DNA of 64,000 bases. Origin: a virus. The stretch lies in the IMG/VR virus record IMGVR_UViG_3300047323_000545. One strand, written 5' to 3'. Under the pieces are notes generated by a model. It searched no databases. It was not told where the DNA came from and was given only the letters and a program-made list of their open reading frames with translations. The translations under genes and the position numbers were made by a program. Below are positions 2,849 to 40,979 of the stretch, one piece after another (position 1 is the stretch's first letter; each line of letters begins with the position of its first letter).

Positions 2849-2975
2849 GGCGGGGACTCCTGACGGTGAAGGACTGGCGGGTGCCCTTTACTCGGTCGCC
2901 GGAATGTTCACGCTATGCGCTGGACCATGGCGGCGGTCAGCGCGAAGTGTTTACAACTCCGACGACAACGCCCCC

Positions 2976-3006
2976 ACTCTAGCGCACCAATTGTTGCGCG
3001 TGTCAA
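2976..3006 (-). promoter_or_regulatory. Promoter TTGACA-N19-TAGAGT with imperfect dyad GCGCACCAATTGTTGCGC
   Basis: Direct read; paralogous to 2249-2279. Confidence 0.7.
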
Positions 3007-3034
3007 GAGCGGAGGCGGTCCACCGGGGGAGGGG

Positions 3035-3574: not shown

Positions 3575-3661
3575 GTGTAACTCCCGTTGCAAGATGGGCA
3601 GGTGAGACCTACTCACACCGATGCGGTACCTGGCGCAAGCGGGTTGTTACCCACCGTCGCG

Positions 3662-3701
3662 GAGAATTCTCTCGTACGCAAGCCCTGAGCGGAGAATTCT
3701 C
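3662..3701. promoter_or_regulatory. Two GAGAATTCTC palindromes 30 bp apart (putative operator)
   Basis: GCGGAGAATTCTCTC occurs twice in the divergent intergenic region (palindromes at 3662-3671 and 3692-3701). Confidence 0.55.
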
Positions 3702-3773
3702 TCTACCGTGTGTTGGTCCAGGAGGGCTGCGAGGGTGCACACTGTGGGCCAGCACGCCAACTGGGGAGGACAC

Positions 3774-4658
3774 GTGCCGTACAAGGCCCGCCGGGCGATC
3801 AGGAGGACGGTCCTCGGCAACATGCTCAACCGCGCCCGCGTAGCCGCCGACGTGGACGTTGAAGAGGTAGTCAAGGCCCTGGGTATCTCTCGGCCGGTCG
3901 TATACCGTCAAGAGGACGGCATCGCGCCCGTCACCGTGGAGAAGATTCCGCAGCTGGCCGAGCTGTACGGCGTCACCGATCCGGAGACGATCGCCAAGTG
4001 GACGAAGTGGGCCGAGATTTCGGCGACCAAGGGTCCCTGGGGTCCGTACGGCAACAGCCTCGGCCCCTCGTACGAGGACTACGCCGACGTGGAATCCCTC
4101 GCCAGGGAGATCCGGGCGTTCGAGCCGGTCGTGATACACGGCCTCCTGCAGACGAAGGCGTACTCCGAGGAGGCCATCCGCGCCAGCGACACGGCGCTCA
4201 CCGGCCCCGCCGTCGAGGGATGTGTCGAGAGGGACCGCATGAAGCTGCGCGAGGCCCGCAAGGCGATCCTCGAACGCGTGGAACCGGCTCCGCCCCGGCT
4301 CTGGGTCGTCCTCGGCGAGGCGGCTGTTCTGACGCCGCCGAGCGTCACGAACAAGGCGGCCCACCCCGACCAGGTCCGGCGTCTGCTCGATCTGGGCGAG
4401 ATGGCGGCGACCATCCAGGTCCTGCCGATGGAGACCGGCCTGCACACTGGACTGGCTGGCTCATTCAGCCTCCTGACACTCGATGACAACATCGACATAA
4501 TTTTCCGTGAGGGTTACCACGGCGACGGCTCTTTCAGTGACGACCCTGACCGAGTGCGCTCATATCGAGCCAGATATGAGCAGCTCATCAGTCAGGCGTT
4601 GTCTCCGGCAGAAACTCGCCGATACTTGCACGGACTCCTCAAGAACCTGGGGAGTTAA
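3774..4658 (+). CDS. XRE-family HTH regulator with DUF5753 domain (WhiJ/Scr1-like)
   Basis: N-terminal HTH; FEPVVIHGLLQTKAYS, VVLGEAAV and IQVLP motifs; GGAGG RBS before GTG 3774. Confidence 0.9.
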   Translation: MPYKARRAIRRTVLGNMLNRARVAADVDVEEVVKALGISRPVVYRQEDGIAPVTVEKIPQLAELYGVTDPETIAKWTKWAEISATKGPWGPYGNSLGPSYEDYADVESLAREIRAFEPVVIHGLLQTKAYSEEAIRASDTALTGPAVEGCVERDRMKLREARKAILERVEPAPPRLWVVLGEAAVLTPPSVTNKAAHPDQVRRLLDLGEMAATIQVLPMETGLHTGLAGSFSLLTLDDNIDIIFREGYHGDGSFSDDPDRVRSYRARYEQLISQALSPAETRRYLHGLLKNLGS

Positions 4659-6926: not shown

Positions 6927-7237
6927 CGGAGAAGCGCAGGCTGCAGGTGAACCCCGATCCGCTCAAGATCGTCGAGGCCCGCCCCGGAGATGCTCCTGCC
7001 TCGGCGACCATGATGCTGGCCATCAAGCGTGGCGAGGCTTACCGCAACAGCACCCTCATGCGTCGAGTCAGCGTCCACCGCGAGGGCTGCCCGCGCATCC
7101 CTGCCCGCGAGTTCACCGGCTGGAGCGTCACACCTGCCTCCCGAGAGATCATTCAGAGAGTCCTCAACGAAGCCGACCGATGCGGCGTGCCCACCGCCGT
7201 CTCCTGCCGCACTTGCGGCGGCTGGAGCGTGCTGTGA
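6923..7237 (+). CDS. Hypothetical protein (HxxxC...CxxC metal site)
   Basis: ATGA and GTGA overlaps at both ends. Confidence 0.65.
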   Translation: MTEKRRLQVNPDPLKIVEARPGDAPASATMMLAIKRGEAYRNSTLMRRVSVHREGCPRIPAREFTGWSVTPASREIIQRVLNEADRCGVPTAVSCRTCGGWSVL

Positions 7238-8238
7238 CGCTGCAGCCCATCGACGGCTCCACCCCTGCCGTCCGGCCGCGCCGAGCCCGGCTCTCGGAGT
7301 CGGCCCGGCGGCGCCTGCAAGGCTCGGTGCCCGATGAGACGCTGCGCGCGTACGCCCGGGAGTGGCCTAGGTTCGTCGCCTGGTGCGCGGCCGAGGGCGA
7401 GCCGTCACAGCCGTGCTCCACGGACGCCCTGACGAACTGGGTGGCCGACCGGGCCGACCTCGGCCACTCGGTGTCGGCGATCAAGCAGGGCATCGCCGCC
7501 GTGGTGTTCTTCCACGACCAGGCCAACGTGGACGAGAAGCTGATGCCGGACACTGGCGACGCCTGGCGCATCGTGAGCCAGTACAAGAAGGAGCGGGCCG
7601 ACGCCGGGTTCCGGCCGATGCAGGCCGCGATCGTCAACCCCGACGAGCTGCGGCGGATGGTGGCCACCCTGCCGCCCGGCCGCGTCGCCACGCTGCGGGA
7701 CCGCGCCATCCTGACCGTCGGCATGTCCTCCTTCGCCCGGCGCTCGAACCTGGTCCGCTTCGACCGGCAAGACCTGGTCTTCCTCGACAACGGCGACGCC
7801 GACATGCTCAAGACCTACTCCAAGACCGACCAGGCGGCCGACGGCCACAAGGTCACCCTGCCCCCGGGCAGCCACGAGCTGTCCGACCCCGTCGGCGCGC
7901 TGCGAGCCTGGGTCGACGAGCTGGAGGCCCAGGGCATCACGGACGGCCCGCTGTTCCGACGCGTCTCCCGGTCCGACAACATCCTCCCGTACCGCCTGGA
8001 CGCGTCGTGGGTGAACACGCTGGTGAAAAAGACAGCGAAGGCGGCCGGGCTCAAGCCACCGAAGAACACCCGGCACTCAGCACACACCCTGCGAGGCTCG
8101 GGCGCCTCGGCCGCATCCCAAACCGGAGCGTCGACCAGCGCCATCTGCGACCAGGGCGACTGGTCGAAGGAAGGCACGCAGGTACACATCTACGTCCGGC
8201 CGAAGGCGAAGGACAACGCCATGCGAGGAGTCCTGTGA
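7234..8238 (+). CDS. Tyrosine recombinase, Cre-like
   Basis: RDRAIL...ARRSNLV, SKTDQ, HTLR, GDW...Y catalytic set. Confidence 0.92.
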   Translation: MTLQPIDGSTPAVRPRRARLSESARRRLQGSVPDETLRAYAREWPRFVAWCAAEGEPSQPCSTDALTNWVADRADLGHSVSAIKQGIAAVVFFHDQANVDEKLMPDTGDAWRIVSQYKKERADAGFRPMQAAIVNPDELRRMVATLPPGRVATLRDRAILTVGMSSFARRSNLVRFDRQDLVFLDNGDADMLKTYSKTDQAADGHKVTLPPGSHELSDPVGALRAWVDELEAQGITDGPLFRRVSRSDNILPYRLDASWVNTLVKKTAKAAGLKPPKNTRHSAHTLRGSGASAASQTGASTSAICDQGDWSKEGTQVHIYVRPKAKDNAMRGVL

Positions 8239-11234: not shown

Positions 11235-11270
11235 GGGGCACCCGCGCCCGACGGCGGGCGCGGGTGCCCC
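11235..11270. terminator. 16-bp perfect hairpin between the DUF397 and JmjC genes
   Basis: GGGGCACCCGCGCCCG-ACGG-CGGGCGCGGGTGCCCC. Confidence 0.6.
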
Positions 11271-11311
11271 TCCCGCACCTCTACCGCAGCCACTCCGACA
11301 GGAGACGCCCA

Positions 11312-12208
11312 ATGCCTCTCTCCGACCTGGTGGAAGATGTACCCGACCTCCTGGCCGCCTGGCCCGCCAAGCCTCGCGTCCACCACCACGACCCCAGCGC
11401 CTTCCGCGACCTGCTCACCCTCAACGAGGCCAACGACCTGATCGACAGCGAGTGCATCCCCGCGCACAACGTCGTCCTCGTCGCGCCCGACGGCACCCTC
11501 GTCGACCGCCGCTCCTTCGTCGCGGGCGACATGCCCCACCCCGGCACCCTGCGAGCCCACCTCGACAACGGCGGCACCGTCTCCCTGCGCAAGCTGGAGA
11601 ACATGCGCCCGCCCCTGTCCCGCCTGCGGGCCGACATCCAGGCCGAAACGGGCTGCCGCACCCACATCAACGCCTACATGACCCCACCCGGCTGCCAGGG
11701 CTTCCGCTACCACTACGACCCCTACGTCACCCTCATCGTCCAGCTTGCCGGACGCAAGACATGGCCGGTACACGAGCCGTTCGTCGAGAACCCCGTACGC
11801 GAATGGGGCAACTTCATCACCCGAGGCTTCACCAACGAAGAGCACCACTTCCTCGCCAACACGCCTCCGGCCGCCAGCTATACCCTCGCCCCCGGCGACG
11901 TGCTCTGGCTGCCTCGGGCCTACGTGCACTCCCCCTACACCGAGGGCGACGAGACGTCCCTGCACCTGACCTTCGCCCTGGCCGCGCGCACCTTCCACTG
12001 GCTGGCGCAGCAGATGGTCGACGAGGCTCTCGCCCACGCCCTGGCGGACCCTGCCCTGCGCGAGGAAATCACCCCCTCCAGCCTGCTGGCCGACCCGGCC
12101 CCGGCGATGGACCGCATGCGCGAGTACCTCGTCGGCGCGCTGCATCTGGTGACGACGGACGACGAAATGTTGCCCATTGTCCGCAACGCAGTCCTGGCGA
12201 CGGACTAG
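11312..12208 (+). CDS. JmjC/Cupin_4 (ribosomal-oxygenase-like) Fe(II)/2OG oxygenase
   Basis: NAYMTPPG.QGF..HYD...QLAGRKTW...LAPGDVLWLPR..VH, giving an HxD...H triad. Confidence 0.88.
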   Translation: MPLSDLVEDVPDLLAAWPAKPRVHHHDPSAFRDLLTLNEANDLIDSECIPAHNVVLVAPDGTLVDRRSFVAGDMPHPGTLRAHLDNGGTVSLRKLENMRPPLSRLRADIQAETGCRTHINAYMTPPGCQGFRYHYDPYVTLIVQLAGRKTWPVHEPFVENPVREWGNFITRGFTNEEHHFLANTPPAASYTLAPGDVLWLPRAYVHSPYTEGDETSLHLTFALAARTFHWLAQQMVDEALAHALADPALREEITPSSLLADPAPAMDRMREYLVGALHLVTTDDEMLPIVRNAVLATD

Positions 12209-13497: not shown

Positions 13498-14361
13498 GTG
13501 GATCCCTTGACGCTGCTCGACGACTGGCTGGCCAACGCGCCCCTGCGCCCCTCGACACAGATCGAGTACCGGCGCGAGGTCAAGCGCTGGCTCACGTGGT
13601 GCGCCTCCCGGCGCCCGCAGGCCGTCGACCCCTACCACGTCGGCCCCGAGCACGTCGCCCGCTGGGCCTACGAGGACCACCTGCGGTACTACTTCGGCGA
13701 CGTCCCCTTCACCGGCCCCGAAGCCCTCGACGTCCTCGTCGCCGAATACCCCGAGGTCGCCAAAAGCCACGACCGGCGCATCACCGCCCTCGTCCAGTAC
13801 TACGAAGCAGCCCAGGACCGGGGCCTGGTCCTCACTCCCCCGCACCTGTACGACCTGCGCTCCGGCATCGACCGCGACACCGGCACACCCCAACGCCTCG
13901 ACGCCCGCGAACGCGCCGCCTTCCTCAAGGCCGTCGGCGCCTGGGGCCCCCACCGCAGCCAGCACCACCAGCGCGACCAGCTCCTCGCCTACCTCCTGCT
14001 CGCCGGGCTCCGCCCCGCACAGGCCGTACGCCTCGACATGCGCCTCATGAACGAACAGCCCGACGGCAGCTGGCACTGCCGCGTCCCCGACGACCACGAC
14101 GGCCCCGGCCGCCCGATGGACCTCGACCCCCTCGTCGGCGACGCCATCCGCGACTACCTCCCCCACCGACCCACCCCCAAGCCCGGCGAATGGGCCCTGC
14201 TCCTCTCCCGCACCGGCCGCCCCCTCTACAGCCGCTTCCCCAACGAACTCGTCCGCGCCATCGCCGACACCAACTCACGCCTCGCCCAACGCCCCCGCCC
14301 CGTCACCGCCGACGCCGTCGCCCACACCGGCCTGTTCGACGAACCCCAGGAGAACCCGTGA
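13498..14361 (+). CDS. Tyrosine-recombinase-like protein lacking the C-terminal catalytic residues
   Basis: Core-binding domain (STQIEYRREV) and RDQLL...GLR present; HxxR replaced by ADAVAH and the ORF ends with no Tyr segment. Confidence 0.75.
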   Translation: MDPLTLLDDWLANAPLRPSTQIEYRREVKRWLTWCASRRPQAVDPYHVGPEHVARWAYEDHLRYYFGDVPFTGPEALDVLVAEYPEVAKSHDRRITALVQYYEAAQDRGLVLTPPHLYDLRSGIDRDTGTPQRLDARERAAFLKAVGAWGPHRSQHHQRDQLLAYLLLAGLRPAQAVRLDMRLMNEQPDGSWHCRVPDDHDGPGRPMDLDPLVGDAIRDYLPHRPTPKPGEWALLLSRTGRPLYSRFPNELVRAIADTNSRLAQRPRPVTADAVAHTGLFDEPQENP

Positions 14362-17814: not shown

Positions 17815-19719
17815 CTAGAGCGTGGTGGGTGTGCTGGGGCGGAGGCCGAGGCGAGCGGCGTGGCGGGCCGTCCCGACAAAGGTGACCACCTCGGTCGCTT
17901 CCCAGCCGACTGCGGGCAGTTGCGGCATGAACCGCTTGTGCCGGTCGACGTATTGCAGCGTCATATGGGCCGTCCAGCCGTGCTCACTGGGAAGGCGGTA
18001 CCCGTATCGCTCCAGGTAGTCGGCCAGACTGACGTGCATCTGTACCCCGCCAGGTATATCGGGGTGAGCCCACAGGACGTGCTGGTCTTTGTAGGCGTTG
18101 TTGAACGTGCCAACGCCTCCGATGTGGATCGTAACTGCCTTTTGCCGCATTGCCCAGGCCGAAACCAGTTGGGGCAGCAATGCCAGCTGCTCCTTGGTGT
18201 AGTCGGCCGCATTGCCCAGGTACGCCAGAGTGATATGCAGGTCATCGACCAATTGCCCGCCGTGCAGGGCGAGTTGCTCGGCCACCTCGGGCGGTGGAAC
18301 GAACGCAACCATCACGCCATCGCCGTTCGCAACGGCAGCCGCCTGCCGCTGCAGCAGGCGCTCCTCGGCCTCGGTCAGTTGCAGGGAGGCGGTGTGATGC
18401 GTCGGCTCGGTCCACTCCTCGTCGGGACCGTGGACGGCAGGATGCTCGATATGAGGGCCGTTGTAGCCCCACTCGTTGATGTCGTTGCCGTCGGTGTGGA
18501 CGTGCTTGGCCGGGACGGTGGCCTTGAGGACCGGCCAGTCTTTCGAGGGGTCGTCTGGATGCATGCCGTGCTCGCGGGCGTACTGGGAAGACGTGCTGAC
18601 CCAGTCTCCGGTGCGGATGTGGCTGACACCGTGTGGGACTGAGCGGTAGATGGTCACTGGGGTGTCCGGCTTCCCCTTGGTCCGGTGGACGGCCGCCAGG
18701 GATTCCTCGTGGGGCTCCCCAATGCTGCCCCAGTCGGGGTTGTCGAGGTCCTCCTGATTGAAGGCGCCCCCCTCCCCGCTGGGGTGGGTCGGATCGTGTA
18801 GCGGAGCATTGTGAGGGCCTGGAGCCCGGTGCATCATCTTGCCGTCGTCGTCCACGGAAGCAGTCTGCTGCAGGTTTGCCGTCCGGAAGAAGTCCGTCAG
18901 GCCGGACAGGCGCTTCTGGGCGGCCTCGTAGTTGTGGGGGCCGATGTGGCCGATGAACAGCCGGTGCGCGCTCTCGGGCGAGGTGGGGTTGCCGTCGGCG
19001 TCCTCGAAGCGGTGGGTGACGCGGTGCAGGAAGTCGGCGCGGGACGAGCGCCAGCCGCCGTTCTCCCACTGCCCTCCGTTGAGGGCGTGGTCGTACTTGT
19101 GCTGCTCGCCGCGTGCGAGGCGGTCGATGGTGTTGAGGGTCTTCTCCTGGACCTCGGGGTGGAGGCCGTCGAAGTCCTTCTCTGCGCCCTTGTGGAACTC
19201 CACCGGCAGGGAGCCGCCCTCGTGGCTGGCGCCCAGGCGCTGCTCGGCGTCGGCGACGTTGTGTCCGGCGTAGCCGACGTGGAGGGTCTTAGTGTCGGGG
19301 TCGGTGCGGTGGACGACCTGGTGGCCGCCGGAGGTGATGGCGGCGTGCCAGCCCTCCAGCGGGTGGGAGAGCGGGTAGCTGGTCACGCCGGAGCGGCCGT
19401 GCTGCAGGGCGGTGATGGTGTCCTGCACGTGGCGGGCGCCGCCTCCGAGGCGGTCGAGGTCGCCCTGCAGCTCCGGGTGGCGCTCTACTTCTGCTGCTGC
19501 GCGGACACGGCGGCCCGGTGCCGCAGCTCGTTCAGGCTGACCGGGCTGCGGTCGCTGGCCGTCTCGTGCCGGTGCAGCAGCTCGGCCTCGATATCCGGCG
19601 CGATCAGCTCCGGGGTGGTCGGCAGCTCGTCCTGCGGCAGGGTCGTTTCGTGCATGGTCCCCTCCATGGGAGGCATCGTACGCGCCACGGAAGTGGGCGA
19701 CGGCGTTGAACTCGGTCAT
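17815..19719 (-). CDS. Polyvalent protein: two RelE/ParE-like domains, an ART-like domain and a 2H phosphoesterase
   Basis: VEFHKGAEKDFDGL...IGHIGPH (RelE-like); IYRS...WVSTS...NEWGY (ART-like); LHITL...AHMTL (2H). Confidence 0.75.
   Translation of the reverse strand: MTEFNAVAHFRGAYDASHGGDHARNDPAAGRAADHPGADRAGYRGRAAAPARDGQRPQPGQPERAAAPGRRVRAAAEVERHPELQGDLDRLGGGARHVQDTITALQHGRSGVTSYPLSHPLEGWHAAITSGGHQVVHRTDPDTKTLHVGYAGHNVADAEQRLGASHEGGSLPVEFHKGAEKDFDGLHPEVQEKTLNTIDRLARGEQHKYDHALNGGQWENGGWRSSRADFLHRVTHRFEDADGNPTSPESAHRLFIGHIGPHNYEAAQKRLSGLTDFFRTANLQQTASVDDDGKMMHRAPGPHNAPLHDPTHPSGEGGAFNQEDLDNPDWGSIGEPHEESLAAVHRTKGKPDTPVTIYRSVPHGVSHIRTGDWVSTSSQYAREHGMHPDDPSKDWPVLKATVPAKHVHTDGNDINEWGYNGPHIEHPAVHGPDEEWTEPTHHTASLQLTEAEERLLQRQAAAVANGDGVMVAFVPPPEVAEQLALHGGQLVDDLHITLAYLGNAADYTKEQLALLPQLVSAWAMRQKAVTIHIGGVGTFNNAYKDQHVLWAHPDIPGGVQMHVSLADYLERYGYRLPSEHGWTAHMTLQYVDRHKRFMPQLPAVGWEATEVVTFVGTARHAARLGLRPSTPTTL
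19485..19655 (-). CDS. Nested out-of-frame 56-aa acidic protein, antitoxin-like
   Basis: GGAGG RBS 5 nt before the ATG, strong GC3 bias, stop falls at the start of the first RelE-like domain. Confidence 0.6.
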   Translation of the reverse strand: MHETTLPQDELPTTPELIAPDIEAELLHRHETASDRSPVSLNELRHRAAVSAQQQK

Positions 19720-22700
19720 GCTGCGGTCTCCAGGTCCGTGGCGGCGGTCCCGTCGTGGGCGTGTTTCCAGTCGATGAGCTGCTGCAGCGGCTTGCCCGGG
19801 GCCTTGTCGAGGGCCTTCCAGGTCGCGTTCGCAGGATCGTAGAGGCCCGACCCCTCGGGGCCGAAAGCGCTGTGGCGGTCAGCGTGGAGGTAATCGTACA
19901 GCGCGGCGCCCTCGCGCTCGCGGACTTCGTCGGGCAGCTCGGCGATGGCCTTGATGAGCTTCTGCAGGGCGTCGAAGACGTCCCAGGTGGACTCGGGCAG
20001 CTTCTCGGGGCCGAAGTCGTCGGGGACCTCGACCGGCTCGACGGCCCACTCGTCGCGGGTGATGTCGTAGGCGGCATAGGGCTTGAGTGCCTTGATGTCG
20101 TACGAGCCCGGGTTGACGTACCAGGTGGATTCCCAGGGACCGGTCTCTTTGCCGTCCGGGCCGGGGAGCATGCGGGCGTCGTCGTTCAGGCCCTCGCGCA
20201 GCTCGTCGGTGAGCTTGGCGTCGACTGCATCATCGGGCTCGCCGGTGAAGTGGTCGACGTGGTAGTTGAGGGCCTCGTGGTCGACGCCGATGAGGATGTC
20301 GAGGTCGTTGTTGCCATACCAGTGGGAGGCCTCGGAGCCGGTGAGGTAGACGCGGGCCCAGGACTGCCAGGAGTCGCCGTACTTCGGTGTCCAGAAGCTG
20401 TTGAGCAGGCTCAGGAGGTGCTGGCGGACGATGGGGTGCATGCGGCGCTGCTCGTCGAACAGGCGCGGGTCCAGGCCCTTCTCCCCCGGCGCGAAGAAGT
20501 GGTCGCGGGGCAGCCATTCGTGGTGGTGCTTGTAGGGCTGGGTGTTGTCGGGGACCGGGGTAGCGCCGTGGCCGCCGTCGGTCAGTCGGCCATCGCAGGC
20601 GGCATCATCCGGGCTGTTGGCGGGGACGGTGCGGCCACCGTCGCAGTGGTAGCACTCGAAGCCGGTGTCGTGCTCGCCGGTGCCGCCGCAGCAGGGGCAC
20701 GGCTTGGTCGCGGCGGCCTGGCGGCGGATGGGCTCGCCGTGGACCTCGACGGCGTCGCCGGTGCCGGTGCGCCACTCGTGCTTGTCGCCGCCGGGGAAGC
20801 CCTGGGCGCCGGGCCGGGGGCGGAGGTGCAGGACAGCGAAGTTGGAGGGGTCCTTCTTGGCGAACGCCTCGCGATCGTTGGAGGTGAACAGGACCGACGG
20901 CTTGCCATTGCCGGACCACTCGCGGGCTCGGGAGAACGCGCCGTACTCGTCGTGGCGTTCCTCGACGTTGGGGTCTCGTTCCCAGCCGGTGCCGACCTCT
21001 CGGCCGTCCTTGGTGACGCCGAAGTTCTTGTGGATGGTCGGGTGGGGGGTCCAGCCCTTTTCCTTGGCCTCGGTGTAGGTGGCGAAGCCGGGCTCCAGGC
21101 GCTTGCCGCGCCTCATGGAGTCCTGCGCGTATTCGTTGTGGCCGCCGGATACGCCGTGTTCGAACGCGTCGTGGAAGGGCTTCTCGGCGCCCTCGGCGTT
21201 CTGGGCTGCGCGGTGCAGGTCGGCGAAGGTGGTCTTGCCGTTGAGGTGGTCGTGGTATTCGTGCAGGGCGTCGAGCATGCTGTGGGCGTTGTCTTCGCGG
21301 TGGGTCATGGACAGCCACTCAGGGGTGCCGCCCAGGCCGTGGCCGCGCCTCTGACCGAGTTCGTCGCCGCTCCTGAGGCCGTGGGCGGCGACCCCAGCGG
21401 CGTCGGTGGTGGTGTGGTACAGCTTCTGCGGCAGCGGCTGCCAGCCCTTGCCCTCCGAGTGCTGGCCAGTCCAGTCGTCCCGGGTGTCCTCGCGGGCGTC
21501 GCCGGTGTAGCCATGCTCGCGGGCCTGCATGTAGTCGAGGTGCCCGAGGGACAGGCCGCGCCGGACGCGGCTCTGGTGATCGGACCAGTCCTCGCCCTCC
21601 CCTCGCGCGAAGGACTCCGCCCCAGCGACCGTGGTGAGGGTAGCCATAGTCCGACCGCGCTGGACTCGCTTGCCGTCGGCGTAGCTCTTCCACCAGGCCT
21701 TGCCGTCGGGCGTGCGGTCGCCGTGATCTATAGGCGTGCCCGGGTGGCGGCGCTGCATTTCGTCCATGAGGGCGGAGCCGACGCCCTTGCGCTGGTGGTC
21801 CTCGTGAGTCTTCAGCTCATGGACAGTGATCTTGTTGTTTTTGCGGCGGGGCACCTGGTAGTCGAGGAAGCCCATTTCTTCGCCGGTCTCGGGGTGCAGG
21901 GCTTTGAGCTTGATCCTTGTCGGCCAGATCGAGCTGCCGGTGTCGGTCTCCTCGTGCTCAAAGTCGGGTGTGAGGGCGGCCTGCCGGGAGATGCTGTGGC
22001 GCTGCTCGATGCCTGCGCGGTCGGGGTGCCAGCGCAGCCAGTTCGTGGCGTCCTCGTGGCTCAGCTCGTGGGGCTTGACCCAACCGTCGCGCACAACGCC
22101 GTCGGTCATGATGGCGTTGCTGTGGGCGTCGCTGTGCTCCTCGGGGGCGTCCCAGTCGACGTCGTCGAGGTCGTGGCCGGGGTAGTTGCTGTAGTGGTTG
22201 CCCGTTGCATGCTCGTGGGCGGCGACCGCGTGGGGGTCGGCGCCGTGCCACGGGGGCGGCATCTTGGCGTCACTGGCCGGGGCGTCGTGGTGGCCGTAGT
22301 CGATGTGGCCGTTGTTCTGGACCTCGGCGTGCTGGCCGACGGGGTGCCACTTCCAGTCGGGGTGGGTGCGCTCGGGGTGCATCGGGATGGGGTGCCCGTG
22401 GGGTTCGTCCTGGCCGTGCCAGACGTAGGCGCCGTCGATGTGGACGTGGCTGCCGGGCTTGAGGCGGACTTCGGCCTCGTGGTCCATGGAGCGCGTGCGT
22501 CCGTCCCAGGACGGGTGGGAGCGGGGGATGGTCTGTGCGGCCGGGTCATCGACGCGGCCCTGCCAGAACATGCGGCGCTGGCCCTGGCCCGGGGGCGGGG
22601 TGAAGGCGGAGTCGGGGTTGACGCTCCAGTGCAGGCCGACGCCGGAGTGCTGCAGGGCGTCGTGGGGTGCGCCCTCGCGGGCCTCTCCGCGCCAGATGGT

Positions 22701-22862
22701 GGTACCCGGGACGGGGTTCTTGGCCAGCTGCAGGGCGCGGTGTCGGTGCTCAATGAAGTCCGGGTGGCCGAGGGCGTCCTCCTGCTCTGGCGGGAGCTGG
22801 GGGCGCGGCGAAATCTCGCCTGCAGCCCGCTGGAAGAAGCCGATCGCGCTGATGTCCGTCAT
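19716..22862 (-). CDS. Polyvalent protein: ART-like, GNAT, second ART-like, CxxCxGxG Zn finger, Pol-beta-type nucleotidyltransferase
   Basis: IWRG..HWS..EAEV; HQRKGVGSALM; LYHTT..GL; CPCCGGTG..CYHCDGG; YLTGS...DLDILI. Confidence 0.75.
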   Translation of the reverse strand: MTDISAIGFFQRAAGEISPRPQLPPEQEDALGHPDFIEHRHRALQLAKNPVPGTTIWRGEAREGAPHDALQHSGVGLHWSVNPDSAFTPPPGQGQRRMFWQGRVDDPAAQTIPRSHPSWDGRTRSMDHEAEVRLKPGSHVHIDGAYVWHGQDEPHGHPIPMHPERTHPDWKWHPVGQHAEVQNNGHIDYGHHDAPASDAKMPPPWHGADPHAVAAHEHATGNHYSNYPGHDLDDVDWDAPEEHSDAHSNAIMTDGVVRDGWVKPHELSHEDATNWLRWHPDRAGIEQRHSISRQAALTPDFEHEETDTGSSIWPTRIKLKALHPETGEEMGFLDYQVPRRKNNKITVHELKTHEDHQRKGVGSALMDEMQRRHPGTPIDHGDRTPDGKAWWKSYADGKRVQRGRTMATLTTVAGAESFARGEGEDWSDHQSRVRRGLSLGHLDYMQAREHGYTGDAREDTRDDWTGQHSEGKGWQPLPQKLYHTTTDAAGVAAHGLRSGDELGQRRGHGLGGTPEWLSMTHREDNAHSMLDALHEYHDHLNGKTTFADLHRAAQNAEGAEKPFHDAFEHGVSGGHNEYAQDSMRRGKRLEPGFATYTEAKEKGWTPHPTIHKNFGVTKDGREVGTGWERDPNVEERHDEYGAFSRAREWSGNGKPSVLFTSNDREAFAKKDPSNFAVLHLRPRPGAQGFPGGDKHEWRTGTGDAVEVHGEPIRRQAAATKPCPCCGGTGEHDTGFECYHCDGGRTVPANSPDDAACDGRLTDGGHGATPVPDNTQPYKHHHEWLPRDHFFAPGEKGLDPRLFDEQRRMHPIVRQHLLSLLNSFWTPKYGDSWQSWARVYLTGSEASHWYGNNDLDILIGVDHEALNYHVDHFTGEPDDAVDAKLTDELREGLNDDARMLPGPDGKETGPWESTWYVNPGSYDIKALKPYAAYDITRDEWAVEPVEVPDDFGPEKLPESTWDVFDALQKLIKAIAELPDEVREREGAALYDYLHADRHSAFGPEGSGLYDPANATWKALDKAPGKPLQQLIDWKHAHDGTAATDLETAA

Positions 22863-23157: not shown

Positions 23158-25359
23158 TCAGCGGCGATATCCGGACCTTGTGCGACCGAGACCTTGATCC
23201 CAGCCCTGGCGTCCGGTACGGGTGCGCGTGAAGGATCGCAGAGCGTCCAGGCGGCCCTGCATGTCCTGGTCAGGCATGGCCAGGTCAGGGGTGCGGGCGC
23301 TGGATCCGTGCAGGCCGCCCATCATGGCGCCAGTGGGCATGGCGCCGTTGAGCATCTCCTTGTAGCCCTCGATCCAGTCGCCGATGAGGGCGAAGGTTGT
23401 GATCATGATCGCATCGGCGATGTCCTTGGTCTGGACGGGGCCGATGGTGGGGTGATCGACGCGGTTAATGCCGGGCTTCTTCTGGAGGAACTTCAGCTCC
23501 AGCATGCCCTCTTCGTGCTCGGGCGCGTGGACGAGGCCCATGTTGATCGCGGCCTTGAAGGTCTCGGCGTAGCGCCAGTTGAGCTGGTTGGTGGCTGTGC
23601 GCTCCCAGATGTTGACCTTCTTGGGCAGGCGCGTTCTGGCGGTCCGCTTGACGAGTGACTGGATGGATCCGACCGACTGGTACTGGTCGAAGGTGAAGTC
23701 CTCGGGGGCGAAGGGGACGATCATGTCGTCCCAGATCCAGTCCTCGACCTCCTCGTAGTCGATGGTGTGGCCAGGAAAGTCGGCCGGATCGAAGTAGTGG
23801 ATCTTGTCGAAGACGACGTGGGGGCGCCCCTCGGCGTCGATCTCTGTATGGGCGAGGGCGACGCCGAAGCGGCAGTTGACGGAGCTGGGGTCGGCGTGGC
23901 CCTTGTACGTGTAGGCAAGGATGCCCTGGGTGGTGGGCAGGATGAGCGGGCTACCGTAATCGGCGGGGCGCTCGTGCCACGGACCGAAGACGGATTCGAC
24001 CTTGTCCGGATTGAGGTAGGCGTCCAGGACGGTGGCCCACTGGGCTCGGCGCTCGACGGCGAAAGTGTCGGGGTCGGCCTTCTCCAGTTTGCGCATCTCT
24101 TCGTCGAAGTTCTGGATGGCGCCCTTGAGGGGCTTGAAGCCGGGCGGGTCGCAGTCGACGTACTCGCCGTTGTCGCCGGTGAATCCCTCGGGGAAGAGGG
24201 GCAGCTCGTGGGCGATCTGCCAGTCGAGGTAGACGTCCCAGCTGGGGAGCTGGATCATCATGACGTTCGCGTAGGTGGGGGTGCCGTCGTCCTCGTAGCT
24301 GGTGGCGCGCAGCCAGTTGTCGTAGAACTTGCCGCTCATCTCCCATGGCGAGCTGGGCTCGACGATGAAGCCGTCCTTGCCGAACTGGTCGAGGGAGGGG
24401 GTGGAGGCGTCGTAGACCTCTCCGGCGGAGCGGTTGGCGCCTGAGTTGACGACGTGGGCCATCTCGTCGAAGCCGAGGATCATGGAGGCGGGGCCACGGC
24501 CTGCCATGACGGTGGATTCCTTGGGCAGGATGTGGAAGGTGGCCATGTCCATGGCGGTCTTGATGCCGCGCTTGCGCATGTCTTCCATGCGGATGAAGTC
24601 GTTCGGCGCGTAGACGGAGAGCTTCTCGCCGAGGCTGTCGGCGATGTACGGGGCGAAGCACGGGCCGCCGGTAACGACGTTGACGAGGTCGCGCCACAGG
24701 TTCTGCTTGGCCTGGTCGCGCTTACCGGCGAAGATCAGCACGGCGAGCTTCTTGTCGCGGTCGACGCCGTAGAACTCCTGGGGGTCGCCCTTGGCCATGT
24801 AGCACCACAGGACGTAGGCCATGGCCAGGGCGCTGATGTGGCCCTTGCCTGCGCGGCGGCCCATGACCAGGAGGATCTCTTTGAACCAGCTGTAGCCGAG
24901 GGCCTTGCAGGCGCGCATGCGGCCCAGGAGGTCCGGGGAGCCGGACAGGGGCATCTTGGGGGCGTCCTCGTTGCCTTCCAGCAGGGCCTGGGCGGCGATG
25001 GCGTCGAGGGCCTCGGTCATGATGCCGTCGACCTCGGCTGCGAGGGCGTCTTCGGGGCTGGTCTCGGCGAGTTCGGCGGCGCGGGCGGCGCGCTGTTCGT
25101 TGGAGGACTTGGCGGTGCGGTAGGACTCGTCCCACTCGGCGACGACCCGGTAGTCGTAGTCCGTGAAGAGGTCTTCACGCAGGAAGAAGACCTTCAGGAG
25201 AGTGGCCTGCCTCGGGTAGAGGTTCGGCCGGTTCAGGTACCTCTGCGAGACCACGAACGTAATCGGGTCGGGGACCTCCAGGCCCAGGAACAGCTGGTGG
25301 ATCTCCGTCGGATCGAAGTTCGCCAGGGGCGAGTTGTCCTCGTTGTTCTTGCTGGTCAT
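23158..25359 (-). CDS. terL: Terminase large subunit
   Basis: Walker A GRRAGKG, Walker B LGFDEMAH, nuclease HADPS...FDQYQ...DIADA. Confidence 0.88.
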   Translation of the reverse strand: MTSKNNEDNSPLANFDPTEIHQLFLGLEVPDPITFVVSQRYLNRPNLYPRQATLLKVFFLREDLFTDYDYRVVAEWDESYRTAKSSNEQRAARAAELAETSPEDALAAEVDGIMTEALDAIAAQALLEGNEDAPKMPLSGSPDLLGRMRACKALGYSWFKEILLVMGRRAGKGHISALAMAYVLWCYMAKGDPQEFYGVDRDKKLAVLIFAGKRDQAKQNLWRDLVNVVTGGPCFAPYIADSLGEKLSVYAPNDFIRMEDMRKRGIKTAMDMATFHILPKESTVMAGRGPASMILGFDEMAHVVNSGANRSAGEVYDASTPSLDQFGKDGFIVEPSSPWEMSGKFYDNWLRATSYEDDGTPTYANVMMIQLPSWDVYLDWQIAHELPLFPEGFTGDNGEYVDCDPPGFKPLKGAIQNFDEEMRKLEKADPDTFAVERRAQWATVLDAYLNPDKVESVFGPWHERPADYGSPLILPTTQGILAYTYKGHADPSSVNCRFGVALAHTEIDAEGRPHVVFDKIHYFDPADFPGHTIDYEEVEDWIWDDMIVPFAPEDFTFDQYQSVGSIQSLVKRTARTRLPKKVNIWERTATNQLNWRYAETFKAAINMGLVHAPEHEEGMLELKFLQKKPGINRVDHPTIGPVQTKDIADAIMITTFALIGDWIEGYKEMLNGAMPTGAMMGGLHGSSARTPDLAMPDQDMQGRLDALRSFTRTRTGRQGWDQGLGRTRSGYRR

Positions 25360-36183: not shown

Positions 36184-39100
36184 TCACAGGGGCTGGTAGG
36201 TGACGAGGGACAGGCCCCGGTCGTTCTTGCGGAGTTCGGCCAGGCAGAGGGCGCCCTTGGTGAAGCGACGCTGCTCGACGGCCCAGGCGTCGCGGAACAC
36301 GGCGACGCGGAGGGTGGACAGTTCGGTCTCCAGGGTCAAAAAGCCCATGTCGCCCGTCCTGTGCGGGCGGGCCCCGGCGACGATCGCGGCGACGTAGTAG
36401 GTGCCGTTGGGTCCTGCGGCCAGCTGCTCGGCCTGGGCACGGCAGACCGCGCGGTCGTTGGGGTCCAGGTCGTCGAACGGCGTACTGGAGAGGTAGGTGC
36501 CGAGCATCTCGTGCTCGATAGTCCGGATGTCCACGGGGCTGTAGGGCTCGACCGCCTCGATCTGCAGCGGCGGCGGCGCGGTGTACTGGCGGCACGCCTT
36601 GGTGCAGCGCTTGGGCAGCGGCTTGCGCTTGAGGGTCTTGCCGGTGCGCGGGTTGACCGGGGCGGGCTCGCTGGCCCAGTTGAAACTACAGGGCAGGGCC
36701 GTCGACTCGAACAGCTCGATCTTGTGGACGCAGCGGGCGTCCTCTTTGGTCTTGGCAGCCAACAGCTTGGCCTCCAGTCCGCGCCGGTTGCTGACGAGCG
36801 TGTCGAAGGCGCCGATGCGCGCGAGAAGGGCGACGACGCCCGCGTTGGCCTTGGGGCTCTTGCGGGTCTCGAAGTCCTCCCAGGAGGCGTACGGCTGGGT
36901 CTCGACGAGGGCCTTGACGGCGACGTCGCCGACGCCCTTGACGGAGCCGAGGCCGTAGCGGACGGCGTACTGCTCGGGGTCGGCGGTGAAGCCGGGGCCG
37001 GAGGTGTTGATGTCCGGGGGGAGTACCTCGACGTCCAGGCGCCGGGCCTCCTTGACGAACTCGGGGACGCGGTCCTTGTCGACGGTGGACATGGCGGAGA
37101 CGAGGAACTCGCGGGGGTAGTTGACCTTGAGGAACGCGGTCCAGAACGCGAGGAACGCGTAGGCGTAGGCGTGGCTCTTGTTGAAGCCGTACTTGGAGAA
37201 CTCGGCCATCTGGGACCACAGGCGCTCGGCCTGCTCGCGGGGTATGTCGACGCGGGAGAGGAACTCCTGCCCGGCGTCAGCGATGGCGGAGATCTTCTTC
37301 TTGCCCAGGATCCGGCGGACGCCGTCGGCCTCGGACTCGTCGTACCCGGCGAGGAGCTGTGTGACGGCCATGACCTGCTCCTGGTAGATCATCGCGCCGT
37401 AGGTGGGGGCGAGGACCTTCTCCAGGCGGGGGTCGGGGTAGGTGACGGCCTGTTCGCCCGCGCGGCGGCGCAGGTAGAGGTCGGTCAGGCCGGAGTTCAT
37501 CGGGCCGGGCCGGACGATCGTCACCATGTCGGCCAGCTCGGCGACGTTGCGGGGGCGCATGCGCTCGCACAGGCGGGTTCCGGAGTGGGTCTCGATCTGG
37601 AAGACACCGACGGTGTGGGCGGCCTGCAGCTCCTCCCAGACCAGGGGGTCCTCGAACTCGACCTCCCACGCCTCCAGGTCGATCTCGTACCGGCGCTGCT
37701 CGCGGACCAGGTCGAGGGTCTCCTGGATGGTGTCCAGGGTGCGCAGGGTGAGGATGTCGAACTTGACCAGGCCGATCGCCTCGACGTCACCCATGGCCCA
37801 CTGGGTGACCATCTGCTCTTCGCCGTCGATGGTGCGCATCGGCAGCCAGTCGGTGAGCGGGGCGCCGGTGGAGATAACCACCCCGGCCGCGTGGCGGCCG
37901 TAGGACTTCAGGCGGCCGACCAGACGCTCGGCCATGGCGAACAGCTCGGGGTAGCGGTCGGCGAACGGCTGCAGCTGCTCGCCGTGCTGGACCCAGAGGT
38001 CCTCCCAGGACATGCCGAGCCCGGCGGTGCCCGCTTCGGCCTCGTCGATCAGGGCGGAGACCTGGCGCAGGTCGGCCGCCGCGCCCTCGGGGAGGGAGGA
38101 CGCCAGCGCGCGGACCAGCTCGTTGATGACGGCCTTGTTCTTCAGGCGCAGCTCGGAGCCGATGGAGACGACGTTGCGCTCGCCCCAGCGCTCGCGGAGG
38201 TAGCCGAGGATATGGGCCTTCTTGCTGGCGGGGAAGTCGACGTCGAAGTCGGGCAGGCCCGCACGGCCGCGCGTCAGGAAGCGCTCGAAGAGGAGGTCAT
38301 GCTTGACCGGGTCCAGCGAGGTGATGCGGGCGAGGTAGGCGACGAGGGAGCCGCCGCCGGAGCCGCGTCCGGGGCCGACCAGAATGCCGTGGTCCTTCGC
38401 CCAGCCAACATAGTCCGCGACCATCAGGTAATAGCCACAGAACCCTTTGTCGACAAGTAGCTCCATCTCCCTCGCGTACCGGTCTCGGTAGACCCGCTCG
38501 GTGTCGGAGAAGTCCTGGGCGTTGGCGGGCAGTCGGTTCCAGTTGTCCAGGCACAGCTCGCGCAGGCGCCGCTCGTCCTCGGCCGGGTCACCAGTGAAGG
38601 ACGGCGTGGTCGTCTCGCCCTCGATCCGGGCGTCGCAGCGCTCGGCCAGCGCCCGGGTGTTTGCGATGGCCTCCTCAACGACGTCCTGGCCGAGGTAGGC
38701 GAGCCCGGCGCGGACCTCGGCTTCGCCCATGACGTAGAGGTTCAGGTCCTCGGCGAAGAGGTCGCCTTCGTCCTGGACGTCCTTGTTGGTCTGGCAGGCG
38801 ATCCAGACGTCGTGGGCGTGGGCGTCGTCGGCGGTCGGGAAGTGGGAGTCGACGGTGGCCAGCAGCGGCAGGTTGAACTCGCGGGCCAGGGCGACCAGGG
38901 CCGTGTTGAGCTTGACCTGGTCGGGCATGTCGTTGGGCTGCAGCTCGACGTACAGGCGGCCGGGGAACAGGTCCATGAGCCGGGTCAGGCGCTGGAGGGC
39001 CAGGTCGGCGTCGCCGTTCTTGATGGCGACGGCCACCGGGCCGCGCAGGCAGCCGGTGGAGGCGATGACGCCCTCGCTGAACCGGCCGAGGGTGTCCCAG

Positions 39101-39861
39101 TCCATGCGGGGCCGGTAGTAGAGGCCGTCGCGGAAGGACTCGGTGCTGGCTGCCCAGATGTTGCGCAGGCCGGTGTTGTCCATGGCGAACAGGCAGACGT
39201 GCCAGTAGTCGTTGCGAAGGCTGGCCTGCATCTCCTTGTCACCCGGCTCGGCGCGGATGACGCGGTCGTCGCACAGGTACGCCTCGATGCCGAAGATCGG
39301 CTTGACCCCGGCCTTGTCGGCGGCACGCTGCAGCTCGGGGTGTCCGGCGCAGGTGCCGTGGTCGGTGATGGCGACGGCGCTCTGGCCGTGGCGGGTGACC
39401 TCACGGAGGATTTCGTCCATGCGGGACAGGCCGTCGAGGGGGCTGTACTCGCTGTGGGTGTGCAGGTGCACGAACCCGCCGGGGCGAGTGCCGGGTGGGC
39501 TGTCGAGGGCTTCGAGCTGGTCGAGGACCTCGTGGTAGGTGGGGATGCCGTCCTCGTCGTCGAAGATCGCGGAGCGGCTGTAGGCGAGGCACAGCCTGTC
39601 GCTGCCGAGGTCTTGTTCCTCGACTCGGTGTGCCGGGACGGCAGTGACACCGTCCTCCAGCGCCTCCATGACTCCGGCCGCGCCGTCGTTCAGTGCGCGG
39701 CGCCATGTCAGGTGGGTGACGATGACGGGCGCGGCAGCGGGGACGAGCAGCCAGCGGGTGCCGTCTTCCTCGTGCTCGACGAGTGCGGGAAGCTGGGCGC
39801 GAAGTTCGCCAACCTGCACATAAGGGGCGTCAGGTGCGTAGGAGCTGATGAGGCGCAGCAC
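36184..39861 (-). CDS. dnaE: DNA polymerase III alpha subunit (family C)
   Basis: PHP HLHTHSEYS, GRGSGGGS, PDFDVDF, KFDIL, YGFNKSHA; GTG 39861 with AAGGA RBS. Confidence 0.96.
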   Translation of the reverse strand: MLRLISSYAPDAPYVQVGELRAQLPALVEHEEDGTRWLLVPAAAPVIVTHLTWRRALNDGAAGVMEALEDGVTAVPAHRVEEQDLGSDRLCLAYSRSAIFDDEDGIPTYHEVLDQLEALDSPPGTRPGGFVHLHTHSEYSPLDGLSRMDEILREVTRHGQSAVAITDHGTCAGHPELQRAADKAGVKPIFGIEAYLCDDRVIRAEPGDKEMQASLRNDYWHVCLFAMDNTGLRNIWAASTESFRDGLYYRPRMDWDTLGRFSEGVIASTGCLRGPVAVAIKNGDADLALQRLTRLMDLFPGRLYVELQPNDMPDQVKLNTALVALAREFNLPLLATVDSHFPTADDAHAHDVWIACQTNKDVQDEGDLFAEDLNLYVMGEAEVRAGLAYLGQDVVEEAIANTRALAERCDARIEGETTTPSFTGDPAEDERRLRELCLDNWNRLPANAQDFSDTERVYRDRYAREMELLVDKGFCGYYLMVADYVGWAKDHGILVGPGRGSGGGSLVAYLARITSLDPVKHDLLFERFLTRGRAGLPDFDVDFPASKKAHILGYLRERWGERNVVSIGSELRLKNKAVINELVRALASSLPEGAAADLRQVSALIDEAEAGTAGLGMSWEDLWVQHGEQLQPFADRYPELFAMAERLVGRLKSYGRHAAGVVISTGAPLTDWLPMRTIDGEEQMVTQWAMGDVEAIGLVKFDILTLRTLDTIQETLDLVREQRRYEIDLEAWEVEFEDPLVWEELQAAHTVGVFQIETHSGTRLCERMRPRNVAELADMVTIVRPGPMNSGLTDLYLRRRAGEQAVTYPDPRLEKVLAPTYGAMIYQEQVMAVTQLLAGYDESEADGVRRILGKKKISAIADAGQEFLSRVDIPREQAERLWSQMAEFSKYGFNKSHAYAYAFLAFWTAFLKVNYPREFLVSAMSTVDKDRVPEFVKEARRLDVEVLPPDINTSGPGFTADPEQYAVRYGLGSVKGVGDVAVKALVETQPYASWEDFETRKSPKANAGVVALLARIGAFDTLVSNRRGLEAKLLAAKTKEDARCVHKIELFESTALPCSFNWASEPAPVNPRTGKTLKRKPLPKRCTKACRQYTAPPPLQIEAVEPYSPVDIRTIEHEMLGTYLSSTPFDDLDPNDRAVCRAQAEQLAAGPNGTYYVAAIVAGARPHRTGDMGFLTLETELSTLRVAVFRDAWAVEQRRFTKGALCLAELRKNDRGLSLVTYQPL

Positions 39862-39989
39862 GGTGGTGGTCCTTGCGCGTGGAGGGTGGTGAAGGTTGAC
39901 CGGGCCGCCCCGGGGAAGAACGCAGCGCTGAAACGCTGAGCGCCGTATCTGACGGCACCGGGGCGGACCGGTGTCTGTGTGCGCCTGGA

Positions 39990-40979
39990 TCAGGCGGCGG
40001 GAGTCTGCGGTACGCCGAGGTTCGCGATGCGGCTGCGCAGGTCGCCGGAGATGTCCGCCGGACCGCTGTCGGCGGCCGAGAGGTTCACCATGCCGCCGGT
40101 GGCCGCCGTGGCGGCGACGATGGTGCCGTCCTTCTCGACCGTCTTGGTCGGGTCGAAAAAGCGGGCGTAGTACTCGTCGGAGGCCTTGTCGGCGACGATG
40201 CCTTCCAGGCTGACCTCGCGCTCGGCGACGGCCTGGAGGTACTTCTCCCAGATGGGGGTGCCCGGCTTGATGAGGTTCTGGCCGGTCGCCGGGTCCGTGA
40301 TCGGGTCGATCGGGACGATCTTGTACTCGGTGTCGGTGCCGGTGCCGCTGCGGGTGACGCTGAAGTCCCGGTCGACGACCGTCCCGTACAGGCCGTGGAG
40401 GGCCTTGAAGTGGGCGAAGAAGCCCTTCATGGGCTGGTTGATCACCAGGATGCGGGGGTACTTCAGCTTGTTGCCGGTGGGCTTGCCGTCGGAGCCCAGC
40501 TCGTCGACCTCGTCGATCTTGTCGCGGATGCCGACGACGACACCCTGCTTGGCCGGGCCTCCGAGGGCCTCGCTGCCGTCGCCACGCACGATCTCCCGCT
40601 CGATGGCGAGGGCCCACACACGGGGGCGAGCGGTGGCGGGCTTGCCGAAGGAGTTCTTCAGCTTGCCGTCGTCGATGTAGCAGTCCTGGTAGTGGCCGCC
40701 GAACGCCTTGTCGTAGCGGCACACCGAGGTCATGTTCTTGGGCCACTTCTCGGCATCCTTGGGGCCCGGCTTGGTGGGCACAAACGAATGCTGGTTGACC
40801 CAGATCCAGTCGTCGTGGTCCGTGAGGAGGCGGACGACTGCGGAGTCGCCGTCGTCCTTGAGGCCGAAGTAGTCGGGGCCGCGACGGCCGCTGGAGGAGA
40901 CGCTTGCCTCCTTCTCGGCCTGCTCGGCGGCGGTGCCGCCTCGGCGGAAGTTGATGACGGGGCTCGTGTTGGCGGTCAC
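39990..40979 (-). CDS. Phage single-stranded DNA-binding protein (gp32-like)
   Basis: YFGLKDDGDSAVVRLL...RSGTGTDTEY; lies next to dnaE. Confidence 0.65.
   Translation of the reverse strand: MTANTSPVINFRRGGTAAEQAEKEASVSSSGRRGPDYFGLKDDGDSAVVRLLTDHDDWIWVNQHSFVPTKPGPKDAEKWPKNMTSVCRYDKAFGGHYQDCYIDDGKLKNSFGKPATARPRVWALAIEREIVRGDGSEALGGPAKQGVVVGIRDKIDEVDELGSDGKPTGNKLKYPRILVINQPMKGFFAHFKALHGLYGTVVDRDFSVTRSGTGTDTEYKIVPIDPITDPATGQNLIKPGTPIWEKYLQAVAEREVSLEGIVADKASDEYYARFFDPTKTVEKDGTIVAATAATGGMVNLSAADSGPADISGDLRSRIANLGVPQTPAA

Follow-up and report, generated by a model that had tools for sequence, protein, structure and literature searches.

Why would a virus keep a small, acidic reading frame hidden out of frame inside the gene of a much larger protein? 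This question is raised by the virus record IMGVR_UViG_3300047323_000545, of which a stretch of 64,000 nucleotides (here called the window) was analysed and which appears to come from a virus of soil Streptomyces, presumably a phage-plasmid. The gene concerned lies on the minus strand (17815..19719) and encodes a 634-aa polyvalent (multi-module) protein, recognized by its open reading frame (ORF), by domain searches and by its ortholog WP_143626643.1. About 170 bases of this large multi-enzyme gene appear to be read in two frames, the second of which yields a 56-aa ORF directly upstream of two RelE-like domains. From the letters of the window, an original prediction had taken this arrangement for a toxin-antitoxin pair captured in a polyprotein. 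We consider it probable (about 0.7), judging from sequence comparisons, that a type II toxin-antitoxin (TA) pair has been absorbed into a polyvalent phage-plasmid protein.

A second reading frame within the 634-aa gene

The sequence features on which the original prediction was built are all present. The long ORF begins with an ATGA overlap (19716..19719, minus strand) by which its start is coupled to the stop of a 1048-aa gene. Nested within it, in the +1 frame, lies the acidic ORF of 56 aa (19485..19655, minus strand; pI 5.1, net charge about -5), which is predicted to be antitoxin-like and to form a helix, a loop and a short amphipathic tail. Its ATG at position 19655 is preceded, at a distance of 5 nt, by a GGAGG ribosome-binding site (19661..19665, minus strand). 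The G+C content at third codon positions (GC3) switches between the frames: it is 0.96 for the nested ORF, whereas the long frame has 0.40-0.55 over codons ~11-80 and reaches 0.9-1.0 over the RelE-like domains. As had been claimed, the nested ORF ends where the first of these domains begins: its stop TAG (19485-19487) falls on Val78 (GTA) of the long frame, within the first strand of RelE-like domain 1, and the resulting GTAG overlap (19485..19488, minus strand) has the register of a classical GTGA overlap.

Annotation retains one product at the expense of the other. In RefSeq the long protein is called, the ortholog being annotated whole in pRLB1-9.1 of Streptomyces sp. RLB1-9, and the small protein is overlooked, while metagenome gene callers do the reverse and call the small ORF with a truncated toxin. 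The 56-aa gene has been called on 16 contigs and a 60-aa version on 28. Such a pattern might in theory arise from two single-base errors that compensate each other, and a sequencing frameshift had been named at the outset among the findings that would refute the proposal. A sequencing or assembly frameshift is refuted by six other Logan assemblies that are identical to the window over 292-321 nt, and by the occurrence of the dual-frame layout in the finished RefSeq plasmid and in 19 further loci.

The corresponding frame is open in 66% of the 56-codon stretches of ordinary genes in the window; thus, nothing about the long frame can be proved from the window by itself, and any significance has to come from homologs. 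Start-bearing +1-frame ORFs of similar size with a ribosome-binding site occur in the background once in 26 kb (GC3 0.68).

Both frames are retained across homologous loci

The comparison set comprised 21 loci; the unpublished genome G426 (L103) was excluded. Both frames are open in 21 of 21, and the nested ORF, on whose conservation the proposal depends, has an ATG, a stop and a GC3 of 0.77-1.0 in every case. Its length varies between 28 and 60 codons with the register kept, and in 10 homologs a 7-base Shine-Dalgarno match is found 5-6 nt ahead of the ATG, with matches of 4-5 bases in most of the others. The coupled start peptide likewise heads the orthologous gene in L001-L007, L014 and L016.

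Could the long frame nevertheless be a chance opening, the real genes being the small ORF and a toxin produced on its own, by initiation at a coupled near-cognate GTA or by frameshifting from the small ORF? As stated, 66% of comparable stretches have the shadow frame open, gene callers divide the locus in just this way, and a GTG persists at the junction in L024. As the long frame of the window has only ~20 codons before the overlap, the case against a chance opening leans on the orthologs, in which upstream modules of up to ~900 codons run towards the toxin without a stop. In the 16 loci where an internal upstream module was present in the stretch tested, the frame with the best GC3 is the toxin frame, free of stops, in 16 of 16. 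Stops are also avoided within the overlap: T-ending codons occur in the nested ORFs at none of 231 long-frame-stop positions, compared with 38 of 458 neutral positions (9.5 expected from a background of 4.1%; P=0.027, computed with one locus per clade and only with loci not selected for a long protein call). Finally, the long frame of distant relatives carries the basic motif AGRGKPR in the overlap (L017:3516-3536, L019:2358-2378, L021:3860-3880, L022:3869-3889, L024:3881-3901), with an identity of 84% in the long frame versus 24% in the nested frame. The nucleotide differences are distributed 13/15/62 over the long-frame codon positions, and this concentration at third positions (62 of 90) indicates that the motif is kept by synonymous wobble in the long frame. 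All 25 occurrences of AGRGKPR among 65,605 residues directly precede a RelE-like domain; in the window's own lineage the motif is degenerate. A processing, packaging or RNA-binding signal is possible. Taken together, we regard a chance opening of the long frame as very improbable.

The nested ORFs of distant clades are homologous, as judged by profile comparison. With a profile of the window's clade, the nested ORFs of L022, L023, L026 and L018 lead the ranking of 1,918 segments (best E 2.4e-5), and HHalign between the nested ORFs of the clades gives 73% (E 3e-5); in the reverse profile search the window's nested ORF ranks first of 1,060, yet with an E of 0.32. A hidden Markov model (HMM) of the shadow frame was insensitive owing to composition (8 of 30 test proteins detected), and a composition measure, which flagged 36 of 38 including one known false positive (P0093), is of indicative value only.

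Alternatively, the nested ORF might be a decaying relic of a captured antitoxin, the long frame alone being in use. Over AGRGKPR the long frame is indeed the better conserved, and the substitutions in the overlap are spread flatly over the codon positions (35/30/40, compared with 30/27/66 in the toxin domain), which speaks against the reading we prefer. The flat pattern fits double constraint or fast evolution and is by itself no proof of selection on the nested frame. However, a relic would be expected to have accumulated stops, whereas ATG, open frame, high GC3 and a mostly clear ribosome-binding site are found throughout the set despite toxin domains that are 28-40% identical across clades. 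Decay appears no more credible than a chance opening of the long frame, and we consider it very probable, for the long frame and for the nested frame alike, that each is translated.

The downstream domains have a RelE-like fold

RelE-like domain 1 (residues 78-162; 19234..19488, minus strand) was modeled by AlphaFold2 (AF2) with a pLDDT of 92, and the model matches Mycobacterium tuberculosis RelE1, YoeB, YafQ and RelE with Z-scores of 9-11, the first three being the top matches (Z 10-11). Foldseek/VIA matches of the AF2 models reach TM values of 0.66-0.75, and in the AF2 tandem model the RelE topology occurs twice. According to these models, both downstream domains have the RelE/YoeB/YafQ fold, as originally proposed. 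In the sequence-profile search, the window's own RelE-like domains gave no direct match, and PF05016 stayed below the cut-off in five of eight relatives; the family profile finds YoeB (6L8E) with an E of 0.002, and P0060 matches phrog_1213 (RelE-like toxin) with an E of 6.5e-6. A search for the domain family among 1.84 billion representatives returned 64 matches, 60 of them true members, and these reside mostly in large polyproteins.

When active-site positions were assigned by family conservation and by alignment with YoeB, the two copies were found to differ. Domain 1 carries replacements of His by Tyr, Lys by Ile, Arg by Gln and Tyr by Val at positions conserved in 51-60 of 62 family domains and is probably catalytically dead in the window's lineage. 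Domain 2 (residues 173-271; 18907..19203, minus strand) has kept the conserved His/Arg/Arg/Tyr and is likely to be an active RNase. Thus, toxin activity is likely to reside in the second copy and not in the one next to the nested stop. Most relatives have one RelE-like domain, the window's lineage has two; the single-domain relatives have no dead copy and retain the nested gene. The toxin domain has no start of its own, the first in-frame GTG after Val78 being codon 98, inside the domain.

Is the nested peptide an antitoxin?

In type II TA operons the gene of a small protein adjoins that of the toxin, and such an arrangement is found here, with the nested stop in the register of stop/start coupling. 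This stop falls on a long-frame GTA in 16 loci, on GTG in two and on CTG in three, at or just before the first strand of the toxin in most of them, and L024 retains a GTGA there. The gene stays nested even where ~130-330 codons of other modules separate it from the toxin (L018, L026, L027). In the complete genome G406, a deletion (L025:2999-4990 / L037) fuses the linker directly to the last 24 RelE-like residues, and with the domain cut to this remnant, the nested gene is absent throughout the genome; a relative of 88% completeness likewise has neither nested gene nor toxin domain. When compared by HHalign with the C-terminal tails of 19 actinobacterial antitoxins from RelE/ParE/YoeB operons, the nested peptides aligned in register with a score of 18-19, compared with 5-9 for 12 shuffles (E ~1e-3), the score being above all shuffles for the full and the window-clade alignments. 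These observations support the view that the nested peptide is placed, and may be built, like the tail of a type II antitoxin. The capture of a pair, as first proposed, agrees with the stop/start register and with the joint loss in G406; the immediate neighbor of the nested gene is less suited to its assigned role, as this RelE copy looks dead.

Several further observations have to be set against our reading, in addition to the flat substitution pattern and the inactive appearance of the RelE-like domain adjoining the nested stop in the window's lineage. The nested peptide has no family in Pfam, NCBIfam and PDB searches, and a query of the ESM Atlas gave only unnamed matches below 0.8. The match to the antitoxin tails is weak, with an HHalign probability of 16-19%, and with the distant-clade alignment alone one shuffle scored equally high. 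The co-loss amounts to one complete genome and one 88%-complete record, and L019, L020 and L050 have divergent nested peptides.

Such points might favor a different role. Both frames may be translated and the small protein may act as a chaperone, a packaging adaptor, a regulator or a modulator of ribosome traffic, with the RNase restrained in another way, for instance until its proteolytic release from the polyprotein or by the dead copy. The missing family match, the weak antitoxin similarity, the fast divergence of the nested peptides (14-80% identity) and the existence of an inactive-looking RelE copy would agree with this. On the other hand, a type II antitoxin would have just this position and stop register, the gene is kept in single-domain relatives that have no dead copy, and it was lost along with the toxin in G406. 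A function other than inhibition is, in our view, unlikely, albeit less so than decay of the nested frame.

An HMM of the nested peptides found nothing significant among real TA loci (best E 0.5), and a TIGR02574-like identity of the nested peptide received no NCBIfam support. No PF02604 match, and hence no N-terminal DNA-binding domain of the Phd/YefM kind, was found in the nested peptides (28-60 aa). The divergent peptides occupy the same position as the others (L019:2398-2484, 28 aa; L020:4672-4836, 54 aa; L050 ~2890-3030, 44 aa, lysine-rich) and may be non-homologous replacements. The P0081 contig (GCA_037932185.1, 832 bp) carries a toxin-family member that stands alone (87 aa) and whose gene shares 4 nt with that of a 40-aa protein upstream, in the manner of an ordinary bicistronic pair; it may be a free ancestral form or a truncated call.

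Proposed mechanism

According to the absorbed-pair reading, a RelE/YoeB-type pair would have entered, in frame, a modular polyvalent gene of the ~155-kb Streptomyces phage-plasmids. The toxin would have become an internal domain of the polyprotein while its former start decayed; as this start is now usually GTA, little or no free toxin is expected. The antitoxin would have been reduced to its toxin-binding tail, the DNA-binding domain being lost or never present, and would be translated in the +1 frame from its own ribosome-binding site on the same mRNA, with its bases doubling as the long-frame linker. With antitoxin and polyprotein on one mRNA, each RNase-bearing mRNA would therefore also yield the inhibitor. 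The nested peptide probably inhibits the RNase and is likely to protect the cell that produces the polyprotein.

During module shuffling the pair would travel as one cassette, and in the window's lineage the toxin would have been duplicated, the first copy being dead and the second active-looking. In L015 (L015:1811-6925), the nested gene and the tandem RelE cassette sit within a different polyprotein of ~1700 aa (GNAT-like, Cys-rich repeats, phrog_2940/30974 region), which indicates that the cassette moves between genes.

Packaging of the polyprotein and its delivery to the next host are about as probable as their absence; they are weakly suggested by the position of the gene behind the terminase and by the precedent of polyvalent proteins. 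Neither a capsid nor a portal gene was identified among the proteins scanned, a further point against this part of the proposal that leaves context as the support for virion loading. The 'unopposed' delivery of the toxin that had been envisaged is doubtful, since a type II antitoxin is normally bound tightly to its toxin and might be packaged along with it. It might be speculated, with clearly less confidence than in packaging as such, that the locus is a self-protecting, shuffle-proof cassette: its RelE domain would enter the virion, be freed by processing and, in the next host, halt or reprogram translation ahead of any fresh antitoxin synthesis, and the dead copy might serve as a decoy for host or own antitoxin.

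A competing view of this delivery step, and of this step only, is that a true TA system acts in the carrier cell, in addiction to the 155-kb phage-plasmid or in abortive defence against superinfecting phages. Tight binding of an antitoxin would hinder the delivery of free toxin. Among the close relatives are a circular plasmid (RLB1-9) and a 155-kb contig (NPDC021080), and for elements living as plasmids addiction or abortive defence would be of use; RelE/ParE systems are widely linked to defence (PMC11980606). However, the gene belongs to a co-oriented block directly behind the terminase, the nested peptide has no autoregulatory DNA-binding domain, and the fused ART, GNAT, metallopeptidase and 2H modules are typical of virion-borne polyvalent proteins as portrayed in passages of PMC5512222. 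A role confined to the carrier cell is possible, but we do not favor it.

Comparison with known systems

The locus shares with type II TA operons such as YefM-YoeB, M. tuberculosis RelBE1/RelJK and DinJ-YafQ (PDB 9G12, 2A6Q, 6L8E, 4Q2U; PMC11980606) the toxin fold, the conserved basic, His and Tyr positions, a small acidic partner and the classical 4-nt overlap register; the tail of the partner weakly resembles the toxin-binding tails of Phd/YefM/RelB. It differs from them in that the toxin is internal to a large polyprotein and has no own start, that the partner lies wholly inside the gene of the toxin, in another frame and without a DNA-binding domain, and that dead and live toxin copies stand in tandem in the window's lineage. 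By analogy, the system would work like a type II TA system, yet it is no bicistronic operon with a separately initiated monodomain toxin, and its partner does not bring a DNA-binding domain.

Several unrelated effector domains that vary between orthologs mark the 634-aa protein as polyvalent. From the N-terminus, it consists of a short start peptide, the dual-coded linker, RelE-like domains 1 and 2, a domain matching phrog_2579 (18445..18882, minus strand; E 6.5e-35), for which the PHROGs label 'ParB C-terminal domain' is a prediction only, and a 2H phosphoesterase domain (17908..18339, minus strand; PF13563, E 5.6e-11). The latter is the constant C-terminal module of the orthologous genes, which between start peptide and overlap carry differing modules (metallopeptidase-like, GNAT, ART, NUDIX, ParB-like). 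Mosaic multi-enzyme proteins encoded near packaging genes, with GNAT, ART, metallopeptidase, ParB-like, 2H and BECR-fold RNase modules, appear in passages of Iyer et al. 2017 (PMC5512222); in these passages the PBECR RNases have a colicin-D-like His/Thr site and not a YoeB/YafQ-like one, and no antitoxin nested in the gene is described. Short linkers of the HTA/RTA/RQA and FFR types recur between the modules of both polyproteins (window 17815-22862; L001-L007, L016, L021-L025). They resemble the N-terminal start peptide and are candidate protease sites or recombination points.

Antitoxins within genes are known. In the Rpn gene-within-gene TA systems (10.1101/2023.05.02.539157; PMC10400984), the antitoxin likewise arises from an internal start in the toxin gene; there, RpnS is in frame and identical to the C-terminus of the toxin, a PD-(D/E)XK DNase, whereas the partner described here is out of frame (+1), shows no sequence relationship to the toxin and lies ahead of the toxin domain. 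Out-of-frame nested genes whose product binds that of the host gene occur in Synechocystis slr0489L/S, where slr0489S relieves the growth inhibition by slr0489L (10.64898/2025.12.20.695498), and in lambda Rz/Rz1. These are, however, spanin-like membrane proteins, with no RNase, no origin in a type II TA pair and no mobile polyprotein module. Polymorphic toxin systems have the toxin at the C-terminus and a separate immunity gene downstream. The MuF polymorphic toxins of temperate phages (PMC5576092) resemble our case in that a phage toxin domain forms part of a larger protein and has a cognate immunity gene, but the toxin is internal here and a MuF domain was not detected. The original prediction knew of no described equivalent; in this generality the statement is too broad, given the intragenic antitoxins of Rpn (in frame) and slr0489 (out of frame), but none of them has the present form. 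In the literature searched, no description was found of a RelE-type pair embedded in a polyprotein gene like this. RelE-type TA, polyvalent proteins and intragenic antitoxins in and out of frame are all known; for their combination in this form we found no described precedent.

If correct, our reading would provide a concrete route by which a two-gene addiction or defence module becomes a domain of a viral effector polyprotein while its antidote is retained, and a natural series of out-of-frame gene-in-gene toxin control in which the pair is adjacent, displaced, duplicated or deleted. Multidomain RelE proteins have been set aside as 'no antitoxin found' (PMC11980606). Since annotation keeps only one product, the antitoxins of such proteins may lie in another frame.

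Genomic setting and neighboring genes

The window belongs to a phage-like element of high GC content that has genes for terminase, DNA polymerase and helicases. Its close relatives are elements of 154-157 kb, one being annotated as the circular plasmid pRLB1-9.1 of Streptomyces sp. RLB1-9 and another being a 155-kb contig of strain NPDC021080. No match was found among GenBank phages or, beyond the centre genome, in 400 sampled Streptomyces genomes, and a promoter scan found nothing. The co-oriented gene block is headed by the terminase large subunit (23158..25359, minus strand; phrog_2, E 3.2e-12), directly behind which lie the two multi-module genes, those of the 1048-aa polyvalent-type protein (19716..22862, minus strand; weak GNAT match) and, downstream of it, of the 634-aa protein. 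On the plus strand are found an HTH-DUF5753 regulator (3621-4658) and, by Pfam, a tyrosine integrase (7180-8238), as well as a second recombinase-like gene (13498-14361), annotated so at the roughly corresponding position of pRLB1-9.1. These three genes are consistent with a temperate phage-plasmid.

The C-terminal module of the 1048-aa protein (19719-20540, minus strand) has no Pfam match, is strongly conserved among the relatives and shows a DxD pattern suggestive of a Pol-beta-type nucleotidyltransferase. At 11264-12208 (plus strand) lies a real gene (GC3 0.91), JmjC/cupin hydroxylase-like by eye, over which a 530-aa minus-strand ORF is an antisense shadow; the region of pRLB1-9.1 that roughly matches it carries an ATP-grasp pair of the RiPP (ribosomally synthesized and post-translationally modified peptide) type. 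The DNA polymerase III alpha-like ORF at 36184-40746 (minus strand) has ~420 residues ahead of its PHROG match.
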